From positions 1 to 38,755 of IMG/VR virus record IMGVR_UViG_3300025030_000257: a stretch of 38,755 nt of DNA; one strand, given 5' to 3'. The notes under the pieces were generated by a model. That model worked only from the letters and a program-made list of their open reading frames with translations, did not search any database and was not told where the DNA came from. Source of the DNA: a virus. Taxonomy: Duplodnaviria > Caudoviricetes. The position numbers and the translations under genes were made by a program. This document shows, piece by piece, positions 1-38,755 of this stretch (the first letter of the stretch is position 1; every line of letters begins with the position of its first letter).

Positions 1-1
1 G

Positions 2-268
2 AAACCACGGGATAAGAGTAGCTATCCCAGTCGGCCAAAAAACATGGATAAACCGGGCCAGTCCCGCGATGACCAGCTGGGCAAGATCGAGGCGCTGCTG
101 ACGATCGGGAAAAAGCCGTGGGAATACGCCGACGGCATCGCCCGCCGGGTCTGCAAGGTGGACAAGGTTCAGTGGGTCAAAACAGGGGAGCTCTACAAGA
201 TCATTGCGGCCCTGACCTATCAGGCCAAACGTGAAGGCTGGGACCTCTCGGGAGCACAACAAAAATGA
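2..268 (+). CDS. Mu-like GemA/gp16 (DUF1018) family protein, 5' truncated by window edge
   Basis: The frame is open from base 2. The C-terminal pattern KIEALL...WEYADGIARRVCKVDKVQW...LYKIIAAL matches the DUF1018 C-terminus, and the gene lies just upstream of a Mor-like gene as in Mu-like phages. Confidence 0.75.
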   Translation, partial: KPRDKSSYPSRPKNMDKPGQSRDDQLGKIEALLTIGKKPWEYADGIARRVCKVDKVQWVKTGELYKIIAALTYQAKREGWDLSGAQQK

Positions 269-462
269 ACGAAATCACCATACTCATCATCGGCATCGGT
301 ATCGGCTATTTCTGGGCATTATACCGGGTGGAAAACTTCTCCGTTAAAGTGAAAACCACCGTCAAAATGGATGCCCAGGACTTCTGGAACCGAGCCGAGA
401 TCTGGCGCAACCATGCCGACCGGAAACAGCGGGAACTGGAAGCGGAGGCCACAAGTGAGTAA
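265..462 (+). CDS. Small membrane-anchored hypothetical protein
   Basis: ATGA overlap with the upstream stop; N-terminal hydrophobic stretch ITILIIGIGIGYFWAL. Confidence 0.6.
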   Translation: MNEITILIIGIGIGYFWALYRVENFSVKVKTTVKMDAQDFWNRAEIWRNHADRKQRELEAEATSE

Positions 463-1000
463 CGGAAACTATCGGGCCCAGTTCCACATATATCGTGAGT
501 ACTACCAGGGCAGCCCGCTGGCCGACATCTGGGACAAGATCATTCATGTTCTGGAGGAACACGGCATGGAAGGCTCCCATGCAGAATACACCGGCCTGCT
601 GATCACCGAGTGGATCCGCACAACCTGGGGCGGCCTGCTCCTGGTGGAGCGGCATATCGGTGATTCAAAGGAAGTCAGTCGTTTCGACCAGCTGCGCGAC
701 CGCGCCGTCACGATCCTGGCCGAGGTAGCTCCGGATCTGCCCGGTCATGGGCCGATAATCGCCGAAATCGTCCGGGTCGTGCGAATCGATTACCGGGGCA
801 AGTACATTACAAAGATCAAGAGCCTCGACCAGCTGCAGCGGGATCATGAGATCTGGAGCCGGGCCAATACGCCTGCCCAGATGGAGCAAATGGCGATTGA
901 ACACGGGATATCGGTGGTACGTGCCTACCAGATCAACAAGGTAGTCCAGCAGCGAAAGGATAAGCGTGATCAGCCGATGCTGCCGGGGGTGACGGCATGA
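455..1000 (+). CDS. Mor/C-family transcription activator
   Basis: GTG start after GGAGG. Has IRTTWGG and GKYITK...RDHEIW...MAIEHGISVVRAYQI, the Mor dimerisation and C-terminal HTH pattern. Confidence 0.7.
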   Translation: MSNGNYRAQFHIYREYYQGSPLADIWDKIIHVLEEHGMEGSHAEYTGLLITEWIRTTWGGLLLVERHIGDSKEVSRFDQLRDRAVTILAEVAPDLPGHGPIIAEIVRVVRIDYRGKYITKIKSLDQLQRDHEIWSRANTPAQMEQMAIEHGISVVRAYQINKVVQQRKDKRDQPMLPGVTA

Positions 1001-1128
1001 GTGCAGATGCAATCCATGTTTGTTTTCTGTTCTTGGTTGCCGTTTTAACAGGCCACCAGGTGAATGAGGGCGAATACGGTTGGGCCGCCACCTTTGCCCT
1101 GATCTTCTTCGCCATGCTGGCCAACTAA
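997..1128 (+). CDS. 43-aa hypothetical membrane peptide (not in ORF track)
   Basis: MSADAIHVCFLFLVAVLTGHQVNEGEYGWAATFALIFFAMLAN; coupled by ATGA and TAATG overlaps on both sides. Confidence 0.55.
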   Translation: MSADAIHVCFLFLVAVLTGHQVNEGEYGWAATFALIFFAMLAN

Positions 1129-1289
1129 TGACGGCCGACAACCTGGATCTATTCGCGGAGCCTGAATGTGATCACCTGCCGGTGCGGCAGCGGGTGTTTA
1201 TCGGTGATTGGCTGGTGTGTGGGCGGTGTGGGGCTAAGTTGAGGTTGAAAAATTACATCTCGGAGGAAAGTCATGAAAAAGGAATGTGA
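1128..1289 (+). CDS. Small Zn-ribbon-like hypothetical protein
   Basis: TAATG coupling; CDH...CGRC motif. Confidence 0.5.
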   Translation: MTADNLDLFAEPECDHLPVRQRVFIGDWLVCGRCGAKLRLKNYISEESHEKGM

Positions 1290-1431
1290 TCATATTTGGG
1301 TGTCGAACAGCGGCCAAGGAGGGACTCCAGATTACAGGCTTAACCGGCAAATGGGGCAGGAACCTGTGATGCACATAAAGTGTTCTAAATGTGATGCCAG
1401 GACGTGGGTGACAAAAGCACAGTGGGAGTAG
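1273..1431 (+). CDS. 52-aa Zn-ribbon-like hypothetical protein (not in ORF track)
   Basis: GGAGG RBS; MKKECDHIW...KCSKCDARTW. Confidence 0.55.
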   Translation: MKKECDHIWVSNSGQGGTPDYRLNRQMGQEPVMHIKCSKCDARTWVTKAQWE

Positions 1432-1437
1432 GATGTT

Positions 1438-1495
1438 CCCGAACGGCTTGAGTACAACAGCGGGCTTCATCGCCTGCTGCTACGTTTTGTTATAA
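1438..1495 (+). repeat. attC-like site 0
   Basis: CCCGAAC ... CAGCGGGC/GCCTGCTG stem with a bulged C ... GTTATAA; 58 bp. Confidence 0.7.
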
Positions 1496-1508
1496 ATCGG
1501 GAGGGACA

Positions 1509-2009
1509 ATGTCGAACCTCAATTTGTTTGGAGATAACGCCGTGGGAGCTATCGAAGTTGACCCGGAAATTGATTATCAGGTGCGCGGTCTGTGTGTAAA
1601 ACCATACCCTCTGCATCCGAAGGGTTGTCCGAATGTTGGCAAGTGCGACCGGTGCCCTCCGAAAGCACCCCTTTTCCATGAGGCGTTCGACTTAACCCGG
1701 CCAGTGTATGCCGTGGTCAATGAATTCGATCTGGCGGCGCATGTGGGGCGAATGAAAGCTGCAAACCCCGCCTGGTCGGAGCGGCAGCTTTACTGTGTGC
1801 TTTACTGGCAGGGAACTGCGCGGAAACAACTGAAGGCCAAAATTGAGGCTGCGCTTGTTTCTTTCCCTGGCTATGAGGAGACATGGTGTCCGGAGGGGAT
1901 GGGCGTGAACGTCACTGATACACTAGCTGCAATTGGTATTGAGCTGGAATGGCCACCGAAGCGGGTTGTCCGTCAGGTGGCATTACTAGGAATTCGCCGA
2001 GATTTATAA
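1509..2009 (+). CDS. DUF2284-like Cys-rich metal-binding protein (cassette 1)
   Basis: GCPNVGKCDRCPP and CPEGMGVNVTDTL motifs; GGAGG RBS; stop codon lies inside the TTATAAC core. Confidence 0.65.
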   Translation: MSNLNLFGDNAVGAIEVDPEIDYQVRGLCVKPYPLHPKGCPNVGKCDRCPPKAPLFHEAFDLTRPVYAVVNEFDLAAHVGRMKAANPAWSERQLYCVLYWQGTARKQLKAKIEAALVSFPGYEETWCPEGMGVNVTDTLAAIGIELEWPPKRVVRQVALLGIRRDL

Positions 2010-2130
2010 CGGTTGCAGCCTGGACGGTTTGCGAAATCAAGGGAGAAATCATGTGCGACAAGTGTAACAGCCACGATCATTCAACAGAAGATTGCGGAGG
2101 GACAAACCCTGCTGCATTTGCTGGTTATGC
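2004..2130 (+). repeat. attC-like site A, whose large loop carries the next gene's RBS and start
   Basis: TTATAAC..TGCAGC..GGTTTG pairs with CAAACC..GCTGCA..GTTATGC; 127 bp. Confidence 0.65.
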
Positions 2131-2419
2131 CGTTAACCCCGCTCTGCCAAAAAATTGGAACAGGGTGTTGTGGTGTATTTATGGCCCTGACTGCTTCCCT
2201 ACTATATTCTGCTGCAAGATCCTGAACCATCCGTCATGCGGCCCCACAGTATGGGGATACAGCGTTTACGAAGGCGAGCCGGGATTCAGGACGCTCGGCC
2301 AAGGGCTAGTTAAGTGGGTTGCTTCAATGCGGGAACTTTATGAACAAGAGGTTGTTTTTTACGACTGCCATGAAGCCGCTGTACAGGCAATTCATCAGCT
2401 AACAACACCATTGACATAA
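2051..2419 (+). CDS. Hypothetical protein (cassette 2); N-terminal CxxC/His peptide encoded inside attC A
   Basis: GGGAG RBS and ATG at 2051; reads through GGT-TAT at the GTT core; stop codon lies in ACATAAC. Confidence 0.65.
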   Translation: MCDKCNSHDHSTEDCGGTNPAAFAGYAVNPALPKNWNRVLWCIYGPDCFPTIFCCKILNHPSCGPTVWGYSVYEGEPGFRTLGQGLVKWVASMRELYEQEVVFYDCHEAAVQAIHQLTTPLT

Positions 2420-2535
2420 CGGTTTAGATCAGCGGAGGGAATCATGAATTGTGAAAGTGAAATAGACGGAAACTGTATAGAAACTCTCGACAAGTGCAAG
2501 GGATGCCTATCTTCCCCTGCATCTGATGGTTATGA
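2414..2535 (+). repeat. attC-like site B, whose large loop carries the next gene's RBS and start
   Basis: ACATAAC-ggttt-AGAT-CAG-CGGAG pairs with CTTCCC-CTG-(C)-ATCT-gatg-GTTATGA. The bulged top-strand C corresponds to the extrahelical G on the bottom strand; 122 bp. Confidence 0.75.
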
Positions 2536-2893
2536 TGCGCTAGATCCACGAAGCAACGAATTTCAGACCGAAGAAATCTCGGAAAAATTCGCGGCGCTCT
2601 GGCAACTCAAAACCATAGTTTCAGCAGGCCAGCAATTCGGGTGTTCTGTAATACAGCGGCATCTCCGGTGGGGATATACCAAATCGTACAACCTCATGGA
2701 GTATGCAGTTGCAAATGGTTTGGCAAAATGGGGCGAGACAGAAAACAGAATCCAATTCAAGCCGGAACTGACAGAATATCGTTGTTCTGGCTGCGGGGTC
2801 ATAGTCATGAAATCTCTGCCGTGGGTACAGTGGAAGCTGTTGACATGTGCATATGGCTGCGGTGAACGTCGATTCATACGGATAGCATCATAA
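2444..2893 (+). CDS. Protein with FtsK-gamma-like winged helix and C-terminal Zn ribbon (cassette 3)
   Basis: GCSVIQRHLRWGYTKSYNLME resembles the FtsK gamma motif SxxQRxLxxGYxRAxxxxE; CSGC...CAYGC at the C-terminus. Confidence 0.6.
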   Translation: MNCESEIDGNCIETLDKCKGCLSSPASDGYDALDPRSNEFQTEEISEKFAALWQLKTIVSAGQQFGCSVIQRHLRWGYTKSYNLMEYAVANGLAKWGETENRIQFKPELTEYRCSGCGVIVMKSLPWVQWKLLTCAYGCGERRFIRIAS

Positions 2894-2949
2894 CGTATCT
2901 AGCACAGCGGCGGCGGTTTTTGCCGTCCGTCTGCTGCGGCTAGTTTATA
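2888..2949 (+). repeat. attC-like site C
   Basis: TCATAAC..GCA-CAG-CGG-CGGC pairs with GCCG-(t)-CCG-(t)-CTG-(c)-TGC..GTTTATA; 62 bp with extrahelical bases. Confidence 0.75.
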
Positions 2950-2969
2950 GTTGCGAAAGGAGATTTTTC

Positions 2970-3545
2970 ATGGATTTGAAACAATTCTGCTGCAAAGACC
3001 CGATGCACCCGAATATTGCGGAACCGTTCACACAGGGCGGCAAAACGTGGGCAACAAACGGATTTCTGGCAATTGGCGTTACTCCTATATTTGGAGTGAG
3101 AAAGCAGGATACGCCGAAGATGGCGGAACTGATATCGAAGGCGGGCGAACCTGGAGAGTGGTACAAAGTCCCGGCTGTCGAAGTCCAGACTTGCAAGCAC
3201 TGTGCAGGAGTGGTGAATAACTGCAAATGCTACGAGTGCGGCGGCGTAGGCACGGTGACACTCAGCAACACCTATACCGAGTACAGCGGCATTGAATGCG
3301 GATCATGCGAAGGCGAAGGCGAAGTGTTGATGTGTCGCTACTGCTCCGGGACCGGCGTTGATGCCGATGAACTGGTAACTATCGGACCCGCCCAATTCAA
3401 GGCAAATGCGCTGCATCTTCTCCGGGATTTGCCGAATGTCGAAATTTCCCCGACCGGAGCGGAAACGTCGGCTCATTTGCGGTTTGACGGCGGGATCGGT
3501 TTTCTGATGCCCGGCAAAGACACCAAAAAAAACAGAGCACTATAA
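2970..3545 (+). CDS. Phage protein with DnaJ-type CxxCxGxG zinc finger (cassette 4)
   Basis: CKHCAG, CYECGGVG, CGSCEGEG and CRYCSGTG repeats; AAGGAG RBS. Confidence 0.75.
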   Translation: MDLKQFCCKDPMHPNIAEPFTQGGKTWATNGFLAIGVTPIFGVRKQDTPKMAELISKAGEPGEWYKVPAVEVQTCKHCAGVVNNCKCYECGGVGTVTLSNTYTEYSGIECGSCEGEGEVLMCRYCSGTGVDADELVTIGPAQFKANALHLLRDLPNVEISPTGAETSAHLRFDGGIGFLMPGKDTKKNRAL

Positions 3546-3603
3546 CGGCTAGCCCCCTGACCCGCCCGGCGGGGTTTGCCGGGTCGGAGTCCTGGGGCTG
3601 GGG
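3540..3603 (+). repeat. attC-like site D, right GTT core degenerate
   Basis: CTATAAC..AGCCCC..GAC-CCG-CCCGGC pairs with GCCGGG-(t)-CGG-(a)-GTC..GGGGCT; ends CTGGGGG rather than CTGGTT. Confidence 0.6.
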
Positions 3604-3641
3604 GAGAAAAACCCCCGGCTACCCGATTGTATCGCGGTTGG

Positions 3642-3809
3642 CTATTTAGGTGGATCAGGGACGGGTTTACGGCGAGAGGGGCGAGGCTTGGATGCATTGA
3701 GTTTACGGGCAGCAAGGGCGGCATCTGACATGGTTTTCTTTTTGCCCTGACCGAGGAGAGAAGCGGGGTTTATCACCCCGCCGCAATGTGGACATTTGCA
3801 CTCAACCAT
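3642..3809 (-). CDS. Small basic Zn-ribbon / putative DNA-binding regulator
   Basis: The start overlaps the upstream stop; CPHCG followed by a basic tail KKTMSDAALAARKLNASKPRPSRRK. Confidence 0.6.
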   Translation of the reverse strand: MVECKCPHCGGVINPASLLGQGKKKTMSDAALAARKLNASKPRPSRRKPVPDPPK

Positions 3810-4002
3810 TGCAGTAATCGTCCCAGAGGCCATTCAGGATGTCACCTGCGGCCTGGTCGGAGGAGGTCCAGTCGCCATCAACGTAATTGCCAGTCGAGCG
3901 GCCAACGGTGGCGGTGTGACCCTGGGTATTCAGCCATGCACAAAATTCATCGGCTTCGGCGTGGTCAACTGCGATTTCGATTTTGTGAGTGTTCGTTTTC
4001 AT
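3802..4002 (-). CDS. 66-aa acidic hypothetical protein (moron)
   Basis: AGGAGG RBS; has its own promoter upstream. Confidence 0.7.
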   Translation of the reverse strand: MKTNTHKIEIAVDHAEADEFCAWLNTQGHTATVGRSTGNYVDGDWTSSDQAAGDILNGLWDDYCNG

Positions 4003-4043
4003 GGTGTAGCCTCCTGAGTTGGTTTGTCCTTCACTGTGATTTA

Positions 4044-4072
4044 ACTATAGCGGAACGTTTCGCTAGTGTTAA
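4044..4072 (-). promoter_or_regulatory. Sigma70 promoter with inverted-repeat operator in the spacer
   Basis: Minus strand reads TTAACA-N17-TATAGT; near-palindrome TAGCGGAACGTTTCGCTA at 4048-4065. Confidence 0.7.
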
Positions 4073-4346
4073 GAGGTTTTTTCAATAAAAAATGCAATAG
4101 GCAAAAATAAATCTTGAGCGGTACAACACCAGCATGGGCGGCACGACCGCCCCTTTCTATCTACAAAAACCTCATGTCAAGCAAAATCCACCACCTCCAT
4201 TAACGATATTTCAACCATTTACGCCACAATCACAAAAAAACATTTACGCAAGGGGGCATAACTACTATAATTTGCCGCACCTGCAATATAACCCCGTAGG
4301 GGCATATAGAGCAGTGAGCCTGCGAACAAGCGACCAGAGGGCGTAA

Positions 4347-4826
4347 ATGTCACGTAAACCACTCAAATCAGCCGACCCAACAGAAACCGTTGAGCAATAC
4401 CGGCAACGGATAGTTGAAATGGTGTGTGAGTCGACCAAGGACACCGAGTATGGTATCAGGCGGATATGTGACGCGTTCCGAAAGGATGACCAAACATTCC
4501 CACCAGCGAGAACAATCAGGACATGGATAAGTGAGAGCGAAGAGTTAAAAGCACAGTACGCGTGCGCGAAAGAGTACCAGATTGAACACATGGCCGATCA
4601 GATATTGGAAATCAGCGATGACAGTTCACTTGATATGGCGTTCAACGAGGATGGCAAGCCGTTTGTAGATCATGAGCATATCCAACGGTCTAAATTGCGT
4701 GTTGACTCCCGCAAATGGTTATTGTCGAAGATTAACCCGAAGAAGTACGGCGACAAGATCAGCCAAGAAATCACCGGCAAAGATGGTGCGGCTCTGTCAA
4801 TCAATATTGTTAAGTTTGGCGAGTGA
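4347..4826 (+). CDS. terS: Terminase small subunit (Sf6/P22-like)
   Basis: P...TIRTWISE..EL..QYACAKE...MADQILEISDD...SKLRVDSRKWLLSKINPKKYGDK signature; directly before terL. Confidence 0.9.
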   Translation: MSRKPLKSADPTETVEQYRQRIVEMVCESTKDTEYGIRRICDAFRKDDQTFPPARTIRTWISESEELKAQYACAKEYQIEHMADQILEISDDSSLDMAFNEDGKPFVDHEHIQRSKLRVDSRKWLLSKINPKKYGDKISQEITGKDGAALSINIVKFGE

Positions 4827-6205
4827 TGCCAATAGTAACCCTCCCTAATAACTGGACCCCCAGAGATTACCAACTCCCCACATGGAAATATTTAGAGTCA
4901 GGCGGCAAGCGTGCTGTTGAAGTGTGGCACCGCCGGGCGGGTAAAGACGAGGTTGCTTTACACTGGACCGCTGTTGATGCAATCCAGCACCCCGGCAACT
5001 ATTGGCACATGATGCCAGAGTATGCACACGGCAGACGTGCTATATGGGATGCAGTCAACCCTCATACCGGCAAGAAGCGTATTGATGAAGCGTTCCCGCC
5101 AGAGATCCGCACAAAGACTAGCCAGCAGGAAATGAAGATCGAGCTGGTATCCGGCGCTGTCTGGCACATTGTCGGCTCTGATAACTTTGACGGCTTGGTT
5201 GGTTCACCTCCCCGTGGTGTCGTGTTCTCCGAGTGGTCATTAGCCGACCCTAGAGCATGGGCATTCATTGAGCCGATATTAGAGGAGAACGGCGGATGGG
5301 CGATATTCCCCTACACCCCGAGGGGCAACAATCACGGCAAGACCATGTATGACCATGCCCGGTCGCATCCTGATTGGTTTGCTGAACTGCTGACTGCCGA
5401 CAAAACAGGGGTATTCACTCAAGAGCAGCTTGACAACATCAAGGCCGGTTTGATTTCCATTTATGGGGATAACGAAGGACTGGCAGTTTTCAATCAAGAG
5501 TACATGTGTTCGTTTGAAGGATGTGTGCCAGGTGCGTACTACTCTAAACAGATGGCAGAGGCCAGACAACAAGGCAGGATAACCCGTGTGCCGCATCAAC
5601 CAGGCGCGGAGGTCAATACCTATTGGGATTTGGGTGTAGACGACTCTATGACTATCTGGTTTATTCAGCACATAGGGCGGTCCCATGCAGTTATTGATTA
5701 TTACGAAAATACTGGTTTTGGGCTAGAACATTATGCCAAGGCGTTGCGCGGAGAGTTACCAGGGTCTGAACACCGCAAGGGGTACACCTATGGGAATCAT
5801 CACATGCCACATGATGCCGAGCAAAGGGAAATGACCAACAGTGAAATAGCCCTCAGCCGCAAGGAAGTGGCGGAGAATTTGGGAATTAAACCGATCATTG
5901 TTGTTTCCCGTGTTCGTAACATTGACACGTTGATTCAGGTACACATTCCGGCTTGCCGCAACATACTGCCCCAATGTTGGTTCGATGAAGAGAAATGCTC
6001 TAAGGGTATTTCAGCACTAGAGGGATATTGCGCTGAATATGACGAAGTAAAAAAGAAGCTCGGCAACCGGCCATTGCATAACTGGTGTTCGCATGGTTCT
6101 GATGCATTCCGTACGTTCGGGGTAGGCTACAAAGATGAAAATGGATGGGATGAAGACGACCACCAAGAAGAACGATCAATCCGCAGCCGCCGTGGAGGCT
6201 ATTAA
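4823..6205 (+). CDS. terL: Terminase large subunit
   Basis: PRDYQ adenine-binding motif, Walker A HRRAGKD, Walker B VVFSE, TPRG coupling motif, nuclease motifs WDLG and SHGSDAFR. Confidence 0.95.
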   Translation: MMPIVTLPNNWTPRDYQLPTWKYLESGGKRAVEVWHRRAGKDEVALHWTAVDAIQHPGNYWHMMPEYAHGRRAIWDAVNPHTGKKRIDEAFPPEIRTKTSQQEMKIELVSGAVWHIVGSDNFDGLVGSPPRGVVFSEWSLADPRAWAFIEPILEENGGWAIFPYTPRGNNHGKTMYDHARSHPDWFAELLTADKTGVFTQEQLDNIKAGLISIYGDNEGLAVFNQEYMCSFEGCVPGAYYSKQMAEARQQGRITRVPHQPGAEVNTYWDLGVDDSMTIWFIQHIGRSHAVIDYYENTGFGLEHYAKALRGELPGSEHRKGYTYGNHHMPHDAEQREMTNSEIALSRKEVAENLGIKPIIVVSRVRNIDTLIQVHIPACRNILPQCWFDEEKCSKGISALEGYCAEYDEVKKKLGNRPLHNWCSHGSDAFRTFGVGYKDENGWDEDDHQEERSIRSRRGGY

Positions 6206-8269
6206 ATGAAACTAGAAAAATGGATAGGCATGACCAACATGGTCAAAGAGTTTACCGACGACCAACTAAACCTACTCGGTCAACAGGTGGTCGAAGATTG
6301 GCAAGCCGACCTGATCACCCGCGAAGATTGGGAGCGCCGTACGCAGGATGGTCTTGACCTTGCAATGCAGATTGAGTCAGCCGGTGACGGTCCATGGCCG
6401 AACAGCGCCGATGTGAAATATCCGTTAATCGCCTATGCCGCTATCCAGTTCCATGCTCGTGCATATCCTGAGATTATCCGTGGTAATGATGTGGTCAAAG
6501 CTAAGGTGATTGGCCGGGACCAGGACGGTAGTAAGCAGGAGCGTGCCGACCGTATCAGCAAGCACATGAGCTATCAGGTGCTTGAAGAGATGACCGAGTG
6601 GGAAGAGGACACTGACCGGCTCCTGATGATGTTGCCCATCATCGGCACGCTGTTTAAGAAAACATACTTCTGCCCCATCCGCCGCCGCAATGTTTCATGC
6701 CTCCGCAAGCCGCTTGATATCGTGGTCCACAATGACGCCAAGAGTATAGAAGACGCCAGAAGGGTGACAGACCAGGGGATATGGCTGTACCGCAATGACG
6801 TACACGAGCGCAAGGCGGACGGTATCTTTGTTGACGAAGACATCATGTACGAGTTTGACGAAGAGAAGCAAGCCGCCGAGCAATTTCTTGAACAACATCT
6901 ATGGTATGACCTTGACGACGATGGATACCAGGAGCCGTACATTGTCACCGTTCACCGGGCATCCGCTAAAGTGGTCCGTGTGTATCCTTGCTATGACAAA
7001 GAGGCTATCATTGTCACCAAGGACGGCAAACTAGCCCGTATTGAACCCACACAGTATTTTACCAAGTTCTCATTCCTCCCCTCATTCGATGGCACGTTTT
7101 ACGATATCGGATTCGGTCAACTGTTGGCGCCGCTGAACGAAGCAATCAACACCAACATCAACCAACTCCTTGACGCTGGCACGCTGTCCAACATGCAGGG
7201 CGGTTTGATTTCACGGGGTATCAAAATCAAGGGGGGCAAATACCAGTTCCAGCCCGGCGAGTGGAAAATGACAGACGCAAGCCCGCAAGACCTGAGAGAT
7301 GGTTTTTTTTCTCTCCCGGTCAAGGAACCTTCCGCTGTTCTGTTCACCATGCTTTCATTCCTTGTTGACGCTGGCAAACAATTATCAAGCGTGGCTGATG
7401 TCATGTCCGGTGAATCCGCAGGGCCAAACGAGCCAGTGGGGACCATGCTTGCACGTATCGAGCAGGGGATGAAGGTGTTTAGCGGTATCCACAAGCGCAT
7501 TTACCGATCCCTTAAGTCAGAGTTCAAGAAGCTAGCAAAGCTGAATCGTGATTACATGGATGATGAATACTATTTCCGCGTGCTGGATATCGAGCAGGTA
7601 GCAATCCGCGCCGATTACAACGAAAAGGATCTTGATGTTGTGCCAGTTTCCGACCCGAACCAAGGGACGGATATTCAGAGGCTTGCCAAAGCACAGGCAT
7701 TGATGCAGGTCAAGGGTGCGCCGGGTATTAACGATTGGCAGATTGTTCACAATTACCTCGAAGCAATCAAGATTGACAACATCGAAGAGATCCACCCGAA
7801 GGAAGGTAAAGAGCAAGCGGGGCAACAGCCGCCGAACCCGGAGATGATTAAGATTCAAATGGACGCAGAGATCAAAAAACACGAACTTGCATTGAAAGGC
7901 GAGAAACAAGCCGCTGAAATCGCCTTACTTGACGCACAGATTGAGAACACCCGCGCTGATACCATGGCAAAAATAGCACAAGCGGAAGCCGCCGAACTCG
8001 GCCCGCAGTTGGAATATTACCGGCAATTCGCTGGGCAACTAGGTCAAGAAAATGACATGATGAGACAATCTATGCAAGAAAGGATGACCGATGGAAACAT
8101 TGACGAGAGCGGAATGGGTGGAATGGAAGAGCCAAGCGACGACGGAGCAGGTTTTCAAGTTCCTGAGGGAGTACCGGCAGAACTGGGAACAGAAATCCCC
8201 ATTGCACCAGACAGCGGAGCAGACCTTCCGGGCGGCTTCGATCAGGGAGGGGGTATTGTTGGGCCTTGA
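6206..8269 (+). CDS. Portal protein (P22-like)
   Basis: Follows terL; 687 aa; GTLFKKTYF and FYDIGFGQLL..LNEAINTNINQLLDAGTLSN motifs; C-terminal coiled coil. Confidence 0.9.
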   Translation: MKLEKWIGMTNMVKEFTDDQLNLLGQQVVEDWQADLITREDWERRTQDGLDLAMQIESAGDGPWPNSADVKYPLIAYAAIQFHARAYPEIIRGNDVVKAKVIGRDQDGSKQERADRISKHMSYQVLEEMTEWEEDTDRLLMMLPIIGTLFKKTYFCPIRRRNVSCLRKPLDIVVHNDAKSIEDARRVTDQGIWLYRNDVHERKADGIFVDEDIMYEFDEEKQAAEQFLEQHLWYDLDDDGYQEPYIVTVHRASAKVVRVYPCYDKEAIIVTKDGKLARIEPTQYFTKFSFLPSFDGTFYDIGFGQLLAPLNEAINTNINQLLDAGTLSNMQGGLISRGIKIKGGKYQFQPGEWKMTDASPQDLRDGFFSLPVKEPSAVLFTMLSFLVDAGKQLSSVADVMSGESAGPNEPVGTMLARIEQGMKVFSGIHKRIYRSLKSEFKKLAKLNRDYMDDEYYFRVLDIEQVAIRADYNEKDLDVVPVSDPNQGTDIQRLAKAQALMQVKGAPGINDWQIVHNYLEAIKIDNIEEIHPKEGKEQAGQQPPNPEMIKIQMDAEIKKHELALKGEKQAAEIALLDAQIENTRADTMAKIAQAEAAELGPQLEYYRQFAGQLGQENDMMRQSMQERMTDGNIDESGMGGMEEPSDDGAGFQVPEGVPAELGTEIPIAPDSGADLPGGFDQGGGIVGP

Positions 8270-8300
8270 TGCACTTCTTGAGATGGATGTGGAGGAATAA
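8091..8300 (+). CDS. Small head-module protein overlapping the portal 3' end
   Basis: AAGGA RBS; EWVEWKSQATT..VFKFL...EGVLLGLDALLE resembles the small gene usually found after podophage portals; its stop abuts the next ATG. Confidence 0.65.
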   Translation: METLTRAEWVEWKSQATTEQVFKFLREYRQNWEQKSPLHQTAEQTFRAASIREGVLLGLDALLEMDVEE

Positions 8301-8735
8301 ATGGATGTTCAACAGCTATTGCGTGGAATTGAAGCTATTTGTGAACCATCTGGTGAGATATATTGCAGCAATGTGTCTCTAGGAAATGGGAGAACAATAA
8401 AGGCTATTGTGATAGATGGCGAGGGAATCAAAAAAGAAGGTGAGAGAATTTCCGCTATCTATAGTTCGCCAGAAATAGCTTGCCAGAAGTTGTTAGATTC
8501 ATTTAAACGGGTATGGGAATCCAGCGGAAGACCTGACAGCATGTTCTGGCGTCGTAAGCCTGAACTGACGAAGATAAACACTGATGGCTATTGCTACTAT
8601 GTGGTTACTGTGCGAGTTGCTTTTGTTCCCCAAAGGGAGAAACCAAACCAACCGCAGACCCGAACCGTGATGGATGGGGTTAACGACATGGTCAACATAT
8701 ACCGATTAAATACGACACAGTGGACTGGCCTTTAA
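8301..8735 (+). CDS. Hypothetical protein (accessory insertion in head module)
   Basis: GGAGG RBS; more AT-rich codons than neighbours; FWRRKPEL motif. Confidence 0.65.
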   Translation: MDVQQLLRGIEAICEPSGEIYCSNVSLGNGRTIKAIVIDGEGIKKEGERISAIYSSPEIACQKLLDSFKRVWESSGRPDSMFWRRKPELTKINTDGYCYYVVTVRVAFVPQREKPNQPQTRTVMDGVNDMVNIYRLNTTQWTGL

Positions 8736-8754
8736 ATGAAGACTCACAACATTA

Positions 8755-8784
8755 TTGACCAACGTAGATAAAATGTGAGATAGT
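8755..8784 (+). promoter_or_regulatory. Putative sigma70 promoter for head genes
   Basis: TTGACC-N18-GATAGT with TG extended -10, in an AT-rich gap. Confidence 0.45.
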
Positions 8785-8830
8785 ATCAACCGTGTTATAA
8801 ATTAACTCACTAGTGTACCACGGATTGGCA

Positions 8831-8956
8831 ATGAAAACAGTGGAAGAAGTCATAAAGCAGTTGAGGGCTTCAAACTTCCATGGAAACGTCACGATCCATT
8901 TTGCAAACGGACAACCGAAGAAGATTGAGACAAAGACAACCGAAGATGTAGCGTAA
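8831..8956 (+). CDS. 41-aa DUF2292/YezD-like small protein (not in ORF track)
   Basis: MKTVEEVIKQLRASNFHGNVTIHFANGQPKKIETKTTEDVA fits the FxGxvxIxxxxGxxxxIE pattern. Confidence 0.6.
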   Translation: MKTVEEVIKQLRASNFHGNVTIHFANGQPKKIETKTTEDVA

Positions 8957-8991
8957 GGCAGTTCACAACCGAATATCGCCTTTATCGTAAT

Positions 8992-9033
8992 AAGAGGGGC
9001 AATCATCATAAACGATGGTTGCCCTTTTCTTTT
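8992..9033 (+). terminator. Intrinsic terminator/attenuator upstream of groES-scaffold-capsid
   Basis: GGGCAATCATC-ataaac-GATGGTTGCCC stem followed by TTTTCTTTT. Confidence 0.7.
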
Positions 9034-9061
9034 ATCCAGCCCAAAGGGGAAAGGAACACAA

Positions 9062-9361
9062 ATGATTGAGCCAAGCGGCCACAGAGTATTGATTCAACCG
9101 GAAACGGTGGAAGAGAAAACGGCAGGCGGTATTATTCTCGCCGCCACTACCAAGGAGCGTGACCAGCAAGCAACCATGCGCGGCACTGTAGTTGCCGTTG
9201 GTGTGAACGCATGGAAAGCGTTTGACGATGGCACGCCATGGGCGCAGGTGGGTGACAAGGTTATCTTCCGCAAGTATGCCGGTGAGAACGTCAAGGACGG
9301 CGAGATTGATTACAGGGTGGTTAATGACGAAGACTGTCTTTGCGTAGTTAAGGAGGGCTAA
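9062..9361 (+). CDS. groES: Co-chaperonin GroES (Cpn10)
   Basis: EPSGHRVLI...EEKTAGGIIL...GTVVAVG...VGDKVIFRKYAG...YRVVNDED. Confidence 0.93.
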   Translation: MIEPSGHRVLIQPETVEEKTAGGIILAATTKERDQQATMRGTVVAVGVNAWKAFDDGTPWAQVGDKVIFRKYAGENVKDGEIDYRVVNDEDCLCVVKEG

Positions 9362-9367
9362 AGAGCC

Positions 9368-10126
9368 ATGGAAGAAACAACCGGAACAGAGCAGGAACAA
9401 GCGCAGGTTGACCCGTTCATTGAAAAAGCATCAGCCGCAGGGTGGCGACCACTGGAGGAATACGATGGCGACCCCGAACAATGGGTAGACGCTAAAGAGT
9501 TCGTCAAGCGTGCGCCACTGTATGAACAGATGCGGAAGATAAAAAAGGAAAACAAAGAGTTCAAGACCACGTTGCATGAGGTCAAAGGGTACATCACCAA
9601 AGTATCTCAGGCGGCATATAACAAGGCCGTTGCCGACCTTACCGCGCAACGTGACGAAGCTATCGACCAAGGTGACCGGGAGCAGGTACGGGAGATTGAC
9701 AAGGCAATCAAGGAAGCGGAAGCAATCAAGGTGCCGATTGATAATGTCCACCCTGCTATCACAGCATGGGAACAGGATAACGGCGAATGGTTTTATGCCG
9801 ACGACAAGATAGTTCGCTTTGGCAAGGCATACGCCAGAAACTACCTTGAAGATAATCCTAACGACATGGCCGGGGCGCTGGAAGCGATGGAAAGCGCAAT
9901 CAAAATCAAGTTCCCTGAGAAGTTCGAGAAAGCACCGGACAAGCGCAAAGACCCACCAGCCGTTGAAGGTGGCAAGCGCGGCGAGGGGAAAAAGACATAC
10001 ACCATGGCTGATTTAGACGACGAAACCCGAAAGGTAGTACGCGGATTTGTCCGGCAAGGCGTTATGAGTGAAGAAGAATACATCAAGGGACTCGTCGATA
10101 GCGGCGTTTTAGGAGGTAAGAAATGA
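9368..10126 (+). CDS. Capsid scaffolding protein
   Basis: GWRPLEEYDGDPEQWVDAKEFV, coiled coil and C-terminal MSEEEYIK; position before the capsid genes. Confidence 0.8.
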   Translation: MEETTGTEQEQAQVDPFIEKASAAGWRPLEEYDGDPEQWVDAKEFVKRAPLYEQMRKIKKENKEFKTTLHEVKGYITKVSQAAYNKAVADLTAQRDEAIDQGDREQVREIDKAIKEAEAIKVPIDNVHPAITAWEQDNGEWFYADDKIVRFGKAYARNYLEDNPNDMAGALEAMESAIKIKFPEKFEKAPDKRKDPPAVEGGKRGEGKKTYTMADLDDETRKVVRGFVRQGVMSEEEYIKGLVDSGVLGGKK

Positions 10127-10545
10127 GCAGACACAGCACCAGGCCCATAGAGGGAGCAAGCAGAGCGGAACGTCCCGAACGTATCCCGCTACACAGGCAG
10201 AACATCATTCGCGCTGACACCCGGCCCGGATTCGTGCGCCGGTTGGTCAACGACACTGACGACCGCATAGAGCGGTTCAAGATTGCAGGCTGGACACCCG
10301 TAGAGGATGAGCAAGTAGGCGACCCACATGCAGGCGACCCATCAAGCGTTGGTTCAATGACTGTGAAGTCAGTCGGAGCAGGGACCAAAGCCGTTTTGAT
10401 GGAAATACCTGAAAAATACTATCAGGAAGACCAGAAAGAGAAACACGTAAAAGTTGACGCGCTGGAAGCAGCCATGGAGCAAGACATCAAAACTAAACTT
10501 GGTGGCTCCGCAATTGGCGAGGGCATCAAGATACAAAGGGATTAA
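10123..10545 (+). CDS. Conserved head-module protein
   Basis: RPGFVRRLVND...GWTPV...AVLMEIPEKYYQED; translationally coupled to the scaffold gene. Confidence 0.75.
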   Translation: MSRHSTRPIEGASRAERPERIPLHRQNIIRADTRPGFVRRLVNDTDDRIERFKIAGWTPVEDEQVGDPHAGDPSSVGSMTVKSVGAGTKAVLMEIPEKYYQEDQKEKHVKVDALEAAMEQDIKTKLGGSAIGEGIKIQRD

Positions 10546-10548
10546 GTT

Positions 10549-11106
10549 ATGGCAAATACAGATCGTCCTAACGGGCTTCGACCCGTAAGAACCCTGAGCG
10601 GCGCTTCATGGCGCGGATCAATCAGGACTATAGGCGTCGCAGATGGTGCCGACATTTTTGTCGGTGATCCTATCAACCTGGAATCCGGCCTTGCCGCTCC
10701 CGGTGCGACAAATGACACCGGCTTTCTCGGTGTTGCAATCGGATTCGGTAAGTTCGTTGAGGGTGGCGCAGTTGGACCTTTCGACCCGGCCAATGACAAC
10801 GCAACATTCTACGATGACAGCGCGTCCACACATACCGAGTGGGTATGCTTCTACGTCCCGGCAGATGACATGCTTTTCGAATCTCAGACCGCTACCGCCC
10901 TGACTCTCGTTGTTGGTGATACCTGTGACCTTTCGTACACAGCAGGCAGCACACTGACCGGGACTTCCGCTTGTGAACTGACCACCAACAGCAGCGCTGA
11001 TTTCACCGTGGTTGAAATTCCGAGCCTAATCGACAATGACCCTACTCTGGTATGGGGACGTTACAATGTAATGTTCACCCGCGCAGAGCAGGCATTCCAC
11101 GCATAA
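10549..11106 (+). CDS. Capsid decoration/cement protein
   Basis: MANTDRPNGLRPVR...IFVGDPI N-terminus typical of the gene before the MCP in this phage type. Confidence 0.7.
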   Translation: MANTDRPNGLRPVRTLSGASWRGSIRTIGVADGADIFVGDPINLESGLAAPGATNDTGFLGVAIGFGKFVEGGAVGPFDPANDNATFYDDSASTHTEWVCFYVPADDMLFESQTATALTLVVGDTCDLSYTAGSTLTGTSACELTTNSSADFTVVEIPSLIDNDPTLVWGRYNVMFTRAEQAFHA

Positions 11107-11118
11107 AGGAGTCTTACA

Positions 11119-12033
11119 ATGCCCATAATGACTACAGGCGGGTTTGCTAAACTCCTTACGCCGGGAATTAAGAAGATCTACGGGGACAAGTACAACAAGC
11201 ACAAAACCGAGTACACCGATATCTTCAACAAGGAAACGTCCACACGGGCGTATGAAGAGTATCAGGGACTTTCCGGTTTCGGTCTGGCACAGCGTAAATC
11301 TGAGGGCCAACCGATTGCTATGGACTCCATGAAGCAGGGTTTCACCACACGTTCAACCAACGTGACCTATGCTCTTGGTTTCATCATCACTCGTGAAATG
11401 TACGAGGATGACCAGTACGACAAGATTTCCACTCAGCGGTCCCGCGCACTGGCAAACTCCATGCGCCAGACCAAGGAAATCGTGGGCGCGAACCTGATTA
11501 ACCGCGCCTACACCGCAGGTTACACATTCGGAGATGGAAAGGTGCTGTGTGCTACCGATCATCCGAATGCTGCCGGCGGTACGTTCTCCAACACTCTCGC
11601 AGTGGCTTCCGACCTGAACCAGGCCGCACTTGAGCAGATGGCAATCGACATTTCCAACTTCACTGATGACCGTGGGCTGAAAATTGCCGTAATGCCTAAG
11701 AAACTGTTGGTGCCGCCCTCCTTGATGTTCGAAGCAGAACGCATCCTGAAATCTTCCCTTGAGTATGATACCGCCAACAACGCTATTAACGCACTCAAGG
11801 CCAAAAACATCTTTCCTGAAGGCATCGCAATCAACCACTACCTGACTGACACAGATGCTTTCTTCATCCTGACCGATGCAGAGGGTCTGGTGTATCAGGA
11901 GCGTAGGGCTGACGAGTTCGAGCCTACCGCAGAAAATGACTGGGATACAGAGAACGCGAGATACAAAGCATCGTCACGGTACGCCTTTACTGCGTTTGAC
12001 CCTCGTGCGCTGTACGGTTCTCCCGGAGTTTAA
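11119..12033 (+). CDS. Major capsid protein (HK97 fold)
   Basis: AAGGAG RBS; LLTPGI...STRAYEE..GLSGFGLA..KSEG...YALGFIITREMYEDD...PKKLLVPPSL...DPRALYGSPG. Confidence 0.93.
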   Translation: MPIMTTGGFAKLLTPGIKKIYGDKYNKHKTEYTDIFNKETSTRAYEEYQGLSGFGLAQRKSEGQPIAMDSMKQGFTTRSTNVTYALGFIITREMYEDDQYDKISTQRSRALANSMRQTKEIVGANLINRAYTAGYTFGDGKVLCATDHPNAAGGTFSNTLAVASDLNQAALEQMAIDISNFTDDRGLKIAVMPKKLLVPPSLMFEAERILKSSLEYDTANNAINALKAKNIFPEGIAINHYLTDTDAFFILTDAEGLVYQERRADEFEPTAENDWDTENARYKASSRYAFTAFDPRALYGSPGV

Positions 12034-29571: not shown

Positions 29572-30579
29572 TCACTGGACAACTTTTCTCATCTTGCCGG
29601 ACTTGTTGGCGAAGTCGACGAGCATATTTAATCCGCGCTCATGGGCTTCCTGGGAGTGTTCGATATAGCGGAGGGTGGTCTGTACTTTCTTATGCCTCAA
29701 CAGTCGCTGAACTAAATGTATATCGCCGGTCATCTTGTACAGGTGATTCGCAGCGCATCTCCTGAATGTGTGCGACGAGATCCGCAGGCCGATGTGTTCC
29801 CCCGCCTGTTTCCATATCTTCCACAGGTACGTGTACGGCTGGCCTTTGGTTCTCCCCTCGAACACCGGGCCGCTTTCCTTTTGGTTCTCTTTCAGCCATG
29901 GGAGGACAGGCGCGGGGATCGGTAACACGTCCTCGATATCAGTTTCTGCCAGCTTATACACTCCATCCTTGATAGACACGTTTTCCCATCTGACATTTCT
30001 GATTTCATTCCACCGCAGGGCGGAAAATAGCATCATGTAAAACATAACGCGATGTACCGGCTTGTCCATTGATTCGATGGCGTCAATGATGCGTTCGAAG
30101 GTCGGGAATACCTGTTTGCGTGGGTTCATCCGCGGGCGCTCTGGTTTGAAGTGCAGCGGGTCACAGTAGTCGCGTTTCCGCATCCATGTTGTGAGCGCCA
30201 GCAGTGCGTTCAGGTCCGTGTGGTAGGTGCAGTTGGCAACGGTGGCGGCGTAGCGGTCAAGTAGTTGCTGATTGAGATCACAGACGCGATAAGAACCGAA
30301 GAAGGGGAGGATGTAATTTCGCATCCTCCGTTCCCGTGTCTGATATGTCGCGCCGGCCAGGTTCTTCTTTGCCCACTCTAGATACCCTTCCGCGATCATT
30401 TCCAAGCGGGGATGTGTCACTGGCTCGGCCTTGAGCTTGCGCTGTTTGATAGCTTGGTCGAGCTGATAGGCCGCGTCAAATCCTTCTACCCTGCGTCGCT
30501 GTGGGGGATGGTTGCGCCCCTGTGGATAGTATTTGACGTAATACCATCCTTCTCTTGTGGGGTGTTTCTCGATGCTCAT
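29572..30579 (-). CDS. int: Tyrosine integrase
   Basis: ALRWNE (R), SHTFR (HxxR), LLRH, TTLRY (Y); N-terminal arm-binding-like beta domain. Confidence 0.9.
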   Translation of the reverse strand: MSIEKHPTREGWYYVKYYPQGRNHPPQRRRVEGFDAAYQLDQAIKQRKLKAEPVTHPRLEMIAEGYLEWAKKNLAGATYQTRERRMRNYILPFFGSYRVCDLNQQLLDRYAATVANCTYHTDLNALLALTTWMRKRDYCDPLHFKPERPRMNPRKQVFPTFERIIDAIESMDKPVHRVMFYMMLFSALRWNEIRNVRWENVSIKDGVYKLAETDIEDVLPIPAPVLPWLKENQKESGPVFEGRTKGQPYTYLWKIWKQAGEHIGLRISSHTFRRCAANHLYKMTGDIHLVQRLLRHKKVQTTLRYIEHSQEAHERGLNMLVDFANKSGKMRKVVQ

Positions 30580-32578: not shown

Positions 32579-33157
32579 ATGACACAAATATTGAACAGAT
32601 TTAGTGGGGAAGTTATCACCGAGGGGGATATGCCATTACGTGAACTGGTACTGACTTATGTAAAAAATGCTGGTTTAGAAAGAGTCCCCGACCTGCGCGG
32701 TGCCAACCTGTGCGGTGCCAACCTGCGCGATGCCAACCTGTGCGATGCCGACCTGCGCGGTGCCAACCTGTGCGGTGCCAACCTGTGCGGTGCCAACCTG
32801 TGCGATGCCAACCTGTGCGGTGCCGACCTGCGCGATGCCAACCTGCGCGGTGCCAACCTGTGCGGTGCCAACCTGTGCGGTGCCAACCTGTGCGATGCCG
32901 ACTATGGGGATATAAAAATCAAATCTACATCTGCTTTTACCGGACTATACAAATACATCTGTATGCCAATTATCGGAGAGGACGGGAAAGAGTGGATACG
33001 ATTGGGATGCCACATTAGGACGGTAGAAGATTGGGCTGCTGATTTCTGGAACAACCCCGGCGAGTTCCCAAACATCGGGGATATGAAGAGCCAACTTCGG
33101 TGGATGGCATACCAAACATGTCTATCATGGCTGGCATTAAACCGTGTTGAGCCATGA
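32579..33157 (+). CDS. Pentapeptide-repeat protein
   Basis: A(N/D)L(C/R)(G/D) repeats; [11 protein letters not shown]-terminus and IRLGC..RTVEDW C-terminal domain. Confidence 0.9.
32687..32902 (+). repeat. 15-bp tandem repeat, about 14 copies
   Basis: Unit GCC-(A/G)AC-CTG-(T/C)GC-G(G/A)T. Confidence 0.95.
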
Positions 33158-37532: not shown

Positions 37533-38267
37533 ATGAAGGAACAAATGACCGCTCAAGCGCAAGTAATAGCAATAAGCCCGGAAGTCGAACTGGAAGCCAA
37601 GTGTTTAAGCCTTTACGAGCAGGCCACAAGCCTGACCGTTTCCAATCCTGAAACCTACGCGGCAGCCGGCGAACTCGGCAAGGGGCTTAAAGCACTGGAG
37701 AAGGAAATCACGGAATACTTTGAACCGCTCCGCATCGCCGCAAAGGCGAACTATGATGCAGTACTGAAAAAGAAGAATGACGAACTGGCACCAGTAACGG
37801 AAGCAATGGGGATCGTCCGCACCAGCATGAACACCTATCTCCAGGAACAGGACCGGATCCGCAGGGAAGAAGAGCGCAAGGCGCGGATTGCCGCTGAAGA
37901 AGTTGCCAAGAAAGAGCGCGAACGTCTGGAAGCGCAAGCACTCAAGGCGATGGAAAAGGGCAAAGACGAAAAGGCCGAATCCCTTATGGAGAAGGCAGAA
38001 AACGTGTATGCGGCTCCAGTTAATATCGCCCCGGTTGTTGATAAGACAATCCGCACGGCAGCCGGAAATATCACCCAAGCGAAAGATATCAAGGTTACCG
38101 TTATGCAGCTGATCCCCTTCCTGTTGGAGCTCTGCGAAAAGAATCCCGGTGCCGTGCCGAATCTTATCAAGGTCAATGATGGACCGCTCAAGGCGTTTGT
38201 GAAGACGAACGGGCTCAGGGCGTTTAAGGGCCTGGTGATCGAAGAGGTTTCCGGTGTGAGGTTTTAA
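37533..38267 (+). CDS. Coiled-coil protein of phage recombination module
   Basis: Long E/K/A heptad region; C-terminal KAFVK...FKGLVIEE; stop codon lies in a TTTTAAC core. Confidence 0.75.
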   Translation: MKEQMTAQAQVIAISPEVELEAKCLSLYEQATSLTVSNPETYAAAGELGKGLKALEKEITEYFEPLRIAAKANYDAVLKKKNDELAPVTEAMGIVRTSMNTYLQEQDRIRREEERKARIAAEEVAKKERERLEAQALKAMEKGKDEKAESLMEKAENVYAAPVNIAPVVDKTIRTAAGNITQAKDIKVTVMQLIPFLLELCEKNPGAVPNLIKVNDGPLKAFVKTNGLRAFKGLVIEEVSGVRF

Positions 38268-38313
38268 CGGCCTCTGGCTGAACCGCTCCGGCGGGTCGTG
38301 CCAGTGGTTAAAT
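38262..38313 (+). repeat. attC-like site E
   Basis: TTTTAAC-ggcct-CTGGC-tGA-aCCGC pairs with GCGGg-TC-(g)t-GCCAG-tg-GTTAAAT; 52 bp. Confidence 0.7.
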
Positions 38314-38733: not shown

Positions 38734-38755
38734 ATTTAACGGTTCAAGCATCACC
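38734..38755 (+). repeat. Start of attC-like site F (cut by window end)
   Basis: ATTTAAC-GGTT; exact complement of the GTTAAAT that opens this cassette. Confidence 0.6.

Follow-up and report, generated by a model that had tools for sequence, protein, structure and literature searches.

Reversed attC-like sites in a phage array carry starts and N-termini that recur, in frame, on unrelated gene bodies

Integrons are known for reordering whole genes, and their integrase, IntI, recombines attC sites as folded single strands. Canonical attC sites have AAC and GTT boxes, an unpaired spacer and an extra base on the R''-L'' arm; the bottom strand crosses over at R' and the top strand at R'' (see PMC5027507, PMC2727003). 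Cutting by IntI normally takes place at R' of the bottom strand, a top-strand cut at R'' being much rarer (see PMC5027507, PMC2727003, PMC8946536); at natural sites, top-strand recombination is ~10^3-fold weaker (PMC8946536), and it has also been documented at R'' of phage sites (PMC9892861). In their study of phage CALINs, clusters of attC sites in a phage without integrase, Qi et al. (2023) found that five of six phage sites recombined with IntI1, top strands at a lower rate (PMC9892861). Such sites can also encode peptides: ORF-11 of attI1 and short ORFs in attC take a Shine-Dalgarno sequence (SD) and ATG from the site and read across the crossover, which aids translation of a cassette gene, ORF-11 being one fixed attI leader that acts mostly through re-initiation (PMC8876359), and protein-coding attC linkers were engineered in 2020 and proposed for shuffling protein modules (PMC7439510).

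The phage locus described here shares traits with all of these. It resembles phage CALINs in its clustered attC sites and lack of an integron integrase, but, unlike what the main text on those elements describes (PMC9892861; its supplement may show gene orientation), its sites are reversed, contain starts and show N-terminus exchange. The boxes, spacer, extra base and predicted crossover positions are those of canonical attC sites (see PMC5027507, PMC2727003), whereas the layout is not: a canonical cassette has its gene upstream of attC on the top strand, while in this locus it is the bottom strand that carries the gene, placed after its site. R'' falls within the reading frame, and the canonical bottom-strand G is usually not the first extra base (it is C in the A/B family of sites). 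In contrast to the single leader of ORF-11, many attC-encoded N-termini (heads; 24–30 residues across the long sites) are fused to the remainder of the gene (the body) and re-paired. New in this locus family is the reciprocal re-pairing of heads and bodies with base-level switch points; the literature searched, which mostly did not extend to subscription papers, describes neither reversed phage cassettes nor natural attC-encoded N-termini exchanged among bodies.

Our reading, to which we give a probability of about 0.65, is that reversed integron-type attC sites ahead of small phage genes encode the RBS, the start and the first 24–30 residues of those genes, and that an integron integrase likely cuts both ends. 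The array would then shuffle proteins naturally, with an integron enzyme as its likely driver, and sites known for reordering whole genes would here appear to recombine protein parts. It would also be a natural version of attC as a peptide linker, an idea so far only engineered or proposed (PMC7439510), using the normally disfavoured box and giving a role to top-strand recombination, which is normally treated as an error.

The window, by which we mean the whole stretch of 38,755 nt analysed, is an incomplete temperate phage contig encoding GemA, Mor, terminase, capsid, lysin, a tyrosine integrase, a repressor and RecT/Bet. Five attC-like sites (0, A, B, C and D; 1438-3628) form a first array between Mor and the terminase, and a second array runs from 38262 through site E to site F, where the contig ends (38262-38755). 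The features are:

1438-1495, minus strand: site 0, a short reversed attC; left AAC (1442-1444) is R', right GTT (1489-1491) is R''
1509-2009, plus strand: cassette 1 gene, 166 aa, DUF2284-like, with its own RBS
2004-2130, polarity ambiguous: site A, 127 bp, a hybrid or degenerate attC; outer AAC 2008-2010, right arm of the family type
2041-2122, plus strand: head A; RBS GGGAG (2041-2045), ATG 2051, 24 codons, C-x2-C-x4-H-x4-C
2051-2419, plus strand: cassette 2 ORF, 122 aa; GGT-TAT crossing at 2123-2128
2123-2419, plus strand: cassette 2 body, 98 aa, a self-contained alpha/beta domain of no named family
2414-2535, minus strand: site B, 122 bp, a reversed attC; AAC (2418-2420) is R', GTT (2529-2531) is R''
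2434-2527, plus strand: head B; RBS GGAGG (2434-2438, in the left arm), ATG 2444, 28 codons, four Cys
2444-2893, plus strand: cassette 3 ORF, 149 aa; GGT-TAT crossing at 2528-2533
2528-2893, plus strand: cassette 3 body, 121 aa; an FtsK-gamma-like region and a C-terminal Cys-pair region
2888-2950, minus strand: site C, a short reversed attC with one extra T in the right box
2970-3545, plus strand: cassette 4 gene, 191 aa, DnaJ-like Cys pairs, with its own RBS
3540-3628, minus strand: site D, right box replaced by a group II intron end (3594-3628, plus strand)
29575-30579: tyrosine integrase, not an integron integrase
38262-38313, minus strand: site E, a short reversed attC of the second array
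38734-38755, minus strand: site F, left arm only, the contig ending inside it

With attC sites clustered within a few kb of one another and no integron integrase nearby, the window has the form of a CALIN. A profile scan found no intI, which together with attI would make a complete integron, in the 38.7 kb of this incomplete contig; the tyrosine integrase scored 32.8 bits against the TIGR02249 integron-integrase profile (cut-off 265). An Rfam scan of positions 1-6000 gave nothing meaningful, and a naive arm-alignment scan did not raise the sites above background. An identical contig of a second study covers positions 1806-2450, site 0 turns up by itself in other contigs, its loose ends lying at 1442 and 1494, and a whole counterpart of site F, its first 19 nt identical, is present in locus L136. 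Since prophages with related arrays were found in genomes that bear the titles Geobacter sp. and Geobacteraceae, and in three more genomes of the same order, the phage host is likely of Geobacteraceae type. The layout (1-1000 and 4347-12033) is mosaic, combining Mu-like GemA/Mor genes with a tyrosine integrase and an Sf6-type small terminase, and a pentapeptide-repeat gene with a near-perfect 15-nt tandem repeat lies at 32579-33157.

The array sites are reversed attC sites whose bottom strand is the mRNA strand, site A, of ambiguous polarity, excepted. Inverted R boxes (AAC and GTT) are present in sites 0, A, B, C and E, and the right box is lost in D. The attC grammar comprises a 5-nt spacer, an 8-nt L'' with an extra base, a 7-nt L' and a 5-10-nt spacer. 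When this grammar was scanned both ways over 20 phage loci, 57 of 59 candidate rows (duplicates included) were reversed; the control, three sites of a host integron, was scored forward throughout by the same script. Within the window, site 0 scored 8.66 reversed versus 6.26 forward (6.5/7 with the minus strand as top), site B, whose extra base sits on the right arm, 6/7 (spacers 5 and 6) with the minus strand as top versus 4/7 forward, site C 6/7 reversed versus 5/7 forward, and site E 5/7 with the minus strand as top. Site A reached 6/7 forward with a weak extension, and reversed 3/7 from its outer box or 5/7 from its inner one; its left arm contains an extra piece of ~15 nt (2011-2025), the last three bases of which (GAC, 2023-2025) are a mutated inner box. 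In bacterial arrays L131, L140 and L168, the A/B family occurs in a gene-then-site layout. Left boxes contain TAA in 90 of the 96 curated sites described below, usually as the stop codon of the upstream gene, and the TAA of cassette 1 falls in the left box of site A.

DNA folding energy is lower on the mRNA strand in 72 of the 96 sites and that strand is G-rich (2121 G versus 1553 C), as reported for attC bottom strands (PMC5027507), but both figures are biased because detection relied on the reversed grammar and was followed by manual curation. For sites A and B, the minus strand folded freely no better than shuffles did (z 0.20 and 0.46), so the attC case rests on box grammar and comparisons, not on folding energy. 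Given the reversed geometry, the textbook cut falls at the left AAC (R') and the in-gene GTT is R'', so that a cut at the left box would move a gene together with its own start. The sequence-only reading had treated the GTT as the ordinary crossover and each start as borrowed from the previous cassette; with the sites reversed, and a sister phage switching at the left box, neither view is supported.

Pattern scans, which demanded an ATG within a distance range and left the frame free, led, after curation, to 96 sites spread over 24 loci of phages or prophages, including 25 long sites of the A/B family. Family sites with a start were found in 6 of 97 stretches, 12 of 76 (three duplicating the window, L001 or L080) and 2 of 85; further scans gave 17, 4 (of 239 genomes) and 10 matches, mostly noise filtered out by eye or script, and in exact-match scans with left-arm pieces 3 of 4 and 19 of 20 matches were chance, only the sister phage being real. 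Curation of 26 loci dropped 14 false or mis-bounded rows, added nine by hand and removed the L001 copies of A and B. Two sites were set aside: the hybrid L298:2501, whose head stops before a gene with its own start, and L308:9755, whose right box is mutated and whose head is nonetheless in frame (both oriented, 0-based).

In each of the 25 A/B-family long sites, the frame opened by an RBS and ATG is stop-free through G/GT-TAT or a variant (slash, cut; shuffle-probability product 3e-16), and the other two frames are open in only 3 and 2 of them. Sites A and B do cross the right GTT in one frame, GGT-TAT, as was first noticed. The broader claim of frame preservation holds for 25 of 25 sites within the family, but the five long sites of other families that also carry starts all use a Val-Met/Val-Ser frame. 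An SD-backed in-frame start is absent from the first 15 codons of all 25 bodies, and the cassette 3 body has no in-frame start codon of any kind until 56 codons from its beginning, close to where the FtsK-gamma-like match ends. We infer that translation begins at in-site ATGs such as 2051 and 2444. These had been placed, with their RBS, in enlarged loops; the starts are indeed inside the sites, but the RBS of site B is in the left stem arm, and in mRNA its predicted pairing partner is the right arm (0.79; mean over the 25 sites 0.76; site A 0.0).

Genes behind the short sites 0, C and E each start from an RBS and ATG of their own downstream of the box, and a script found the same at 46 of 62 short sites. 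No clear case of a start-less body behind a short site emerged among the 62 (46 scored by script, 16 read by eye), and the suggestion that a short site would silence such a cassette thus lacks an example. The two ends of gene bodies (4 nt after GTT and 4 nt before the next AAC) are perfectly complementary in 51 of 62 cases (null mean 6), compared with only 7 of 96 for the same measure within a site; because these ends rebuild a complementary R box, bodies appear to be true circularisable cassettes.

Comparison of related loci located homology switches at both boxes. Among 13 site pairs from eight families at >=88% identity, the upstream flank is unlike in all 13 and the downstream flank in 11 (six of eight families). 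At the left box, the 45-kb sister phage L001 shares the 2.3-kb array, which there adjoins different DNA at a point 2 nt before the site 0 crossover (L-2), and L136 departs from L192 at L-3. At the right box, a head that we call H1 recurs in L171, L186 and L305 as a 112-nt block, 92–93% identical from L-3 to R+5, on three unrelated bodies, two of which recur under unrelated heads in L135 and L123; altogether, four body families were found with unrelated heads. Homologues therefore re-pair at the Gly-Tyr junction, as had been predicted. The L135 and L186 bodies have 311 nt in common at 80% identity, including the first 22 nt after G/TT and the stop, under unrelated heads, and since the arms differ at the base before G, the switch is confined to ~6 nt (about -1 to +5 of G/TT). 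L123 and L171 have the same body start, with a switch resembling this one. The gene behind site E has an unrelated short site upstream of it in L136, homology beginning 4 nt before G/TT (R-4), and in five pairs of near-identical short sites homology is lost at R+2 to R+6. Run X5, from another study, contains a relative of head B (40/44 nt) that keeps the frame but has different flanks, as judged over 30 letters; cassette 3 had no coverage in this run, which carries no weight either way.

From 12 body pairs we dropped five (the identical L001 array, which retains its site; two repeats internal to a body; and two whose match began >200 nt away from the site); the homologous pairs that remained keep their upstream site in one of seven cases and their downstream site in none of four, two of the seven being distant (34% and 49% identity). 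Heads and bodies travel together in L136/L192, where the loop is 75% identical at 60% body identity, and in L001/window, while heads are unrelated in other pairs at 78–88% body identity. Recombination joints or circles were not seen in the contigs, which drop rare variants. Reversed geometry, in-site start, fixed frame and homology switching at both boxes are shown. Headless, headed and re-headed versions of a gene make it testable how a gene gains or changes its attC site; at L136:3690-3906 (oriented), a headless copy of the L171/L123 body has another natural N-terminus, the homology beginning 3 nt after the crossover position.

Several other explanations have to be weighed against integrase-driven exchange. 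That no swapping occurs, and copies of an existing site are repeatedly attached to new genes, is in our judgement unlikely. Near-identical sites flank unrelated genes in chromosomal integrons as well, and repeated building would account for one head on three bodies, for the existence of headless ancestors and for the group II intron end in site D, group II introns having been proposed as helpers in cassette building (PMC3001079). It does not explain L135/L186, where the same body with the same capture ends stands under unrelated heads, nor the same start in L123/L171: because the L135 and L186 bodies keep both end bases, a single capture followed by exchange is needed. Fast evolution of the loop, which would make heads look unrelated that were never exchanged, draws on the build-up of non-synonymous changes in related heads (18 codon changes versus 8 synonymous ones, from four non-independent pairs) and on the two distant body pairs, but a loop still 75% identical at 60% body identity in L136/L192, unrelated heads at 78–88% and one head on three unrelated bodies largely refute it, and we regard it as very improbable.

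The two other candidates concern which box recombines, and how. Annealing by Bet/RecT across the ~20-nt right arm might swap heads while an integrase acts at the left box only: the window encodes a Bet recombinase over cut-off, family arms have 16–20 nt in common, body matches reach R-16 in family sites, and hybrid sites from other deletions exist (site A; L298). We nevertheless consider this rather improbable, as the L135/L186 arms differ at the base before G/TT, unrelated short-site families switch there too (L136 versus site E, matching from R-4), and homology ends at R+2 to R+6 in the five near-identical short-site pairs. Homology this short is probably insufficient for annealing recombinases. 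Quite improbable, finally, is a forward attC with GTT as its normal crossover, in which starts come from the previous cassette and cassette order acts as an on/off switch; the common switches at G/TT, the forward fit of site A (6/7) and the 25 of 25 bodies without an early start of their own are as it would predict, but it is contradicted by the reversed rows (57 of 59, with a working forward control), the unlike upstream flanks in 13 of 13 near-identical site pairs, the left-box switch of L001 and the lack of a clear start-less body after any of the 62 short sites.

Under the preferred reading of exchange by an integron integrase at both boxes, the usual bottom-strand cut at the left AA/C would move a gene and its head as one cassette. 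A rarer top-strand cut at the in-gene G/TT would instead excise a body together with the next site, fusing the upstream head to the next body and, in the excised circle, placing the downstream head on the excised body, so that each such event would give two new in-frame chimeric proteins. Despite the ~10^3-fold weaker top-strand reaction, switches at the right box are only slightly outnumbered here by those at the left box, which selection or cassette building may explain.

The integrase would act in trans, supplied by the host or by another prophage resident in it. IntI exceeds the TIGR02249 cut-off in all five host genomes with such prophages and in none of five related virus records; the former count is weak support, since 33 of 61 genomes of the host order encode IntI. 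Two prophages carry an IntI-family gene within or beside reversed sites:

L307:4050-5213 (G147:C53): IntI-family gene over the TIGR02249 cut-off, in a prophage operon, adjoining a reversed attC
L291:10721-11746 (G002:C71): IntI-family gene over the TIGR02249 cut-off, in a prophage operon, adjoining a reversed attC

These are concrete candidates for a phage-borne enzyme. The L291 prophage also contains an Avd-like ORF, an RT-like ORF and an Asn-rich frame (L291:7540-9304), which we take to resemble a diversity-generating retroelement. More tentatively, phages of Geobacteraceae-type hosts might run a combinatorial protein library, in which an integron integrase, possibly of a phage-encoded clade with relaxed strand choice, cuts reversed attC sites at both boxes and deals RBS-plus-zinc-finger heads and bodies independently of each other, always in frame, and the head alters the function or metal control of the body; we think this possible but doubtful.

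Judged from their sequences, the heads likely serve initiation in the first place and metal binding in some cases. Their basic role would be to supply translation initiation, and about half would likely contribute a small module for binding metal as well. As the RBS is predicted to be paired in an mRNA stem, initiation is likely coupled to ribosomes halting at the upstream TAA; attC hairpins have been reported to hinder translation (PMC8876359, section 3.2). Across the 25 heads, 56 of 515 codons are Cys in frame, as against 8 and 10 TGY in the other frames and a dinucleotide null with mean 22 and maximum 35, and CxxC occurs in ten heads (P=0.015, within-head shuffle). Head A has the CCHC zinc-knuckle spacing C-x2-C-x4-H-x4-C (residues 2–15 of ORF 2051), and two zinc-knuckle Pfam profiles match it under cut-off, at E values of 0.15 and 0.26 (PF21759, 12.6 bits, cut-off 27; PF16641, 11.7 bits, cut-off 25). 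Residues 1–23 of this ORF have a pLDDT <50, as expected given that the model included neither head homologues nor metal. The sequence-only view of heads as interchangeable metal-binding N-termini is therefore upheld in part: heads are Cys-enriched and re-paired, but 10 of 25 have 0–1 Cys, and bodies occur with a Cys-free head or none.

At site D, window positions 3594-3628 (plus strand) are identical to the final 35 nt of a group II intron and stand in place of the right box. Copies of this intron end in the host order lie downstream of RT genes (YADD/YVDD motif in five of eight) and have no attC-like boxes downstream of them; RF00029 matched in two of seven loci (Rfam). Group II identity is shown by these matches; membership of the IIC-attC class, whose introns insert at R'' of the bottom strand, would be tentative.

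Relatives of the two headed bodies give a similar picture at the protein level. The cassette 2 body, with a mean pLDDT of 89–96 in blocks covering residues 31–120, has eight homologues with other heads or headless: the head differs in P0002, P0003 and P0004 (the last in the Val-Met frame; all three compared as proteins) and is missing in P0005–P0009 and L002. A fold search gave a 96-aa viral match (E 3e-7), the best match among solved structures being uninformative (Z 4.0). The cassette 3 body matches PF09397 under cut-off (E 8e-5), the FtsK-gamma-like part lying at body residues 26–60. In P0010, a body 88% identical to it has an unrelated, Cys-free head, and unrelated heads also occur in P0013 and P0014 (P0010 and P0014 compared as proteins), while P0011, P0012 and P0016 are headless. 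By eye, the head loop peptide of P0010 resembles that of L189:3576 (oriented), a head of another site family, hinting that loops can pass between site families. The Cys-pair region of cassette 3 (window 2765-2893) is the end of a separate small protein, P0015, and several homologues of the front region end just short of it, so the cassette 3 body is itself a fusion.
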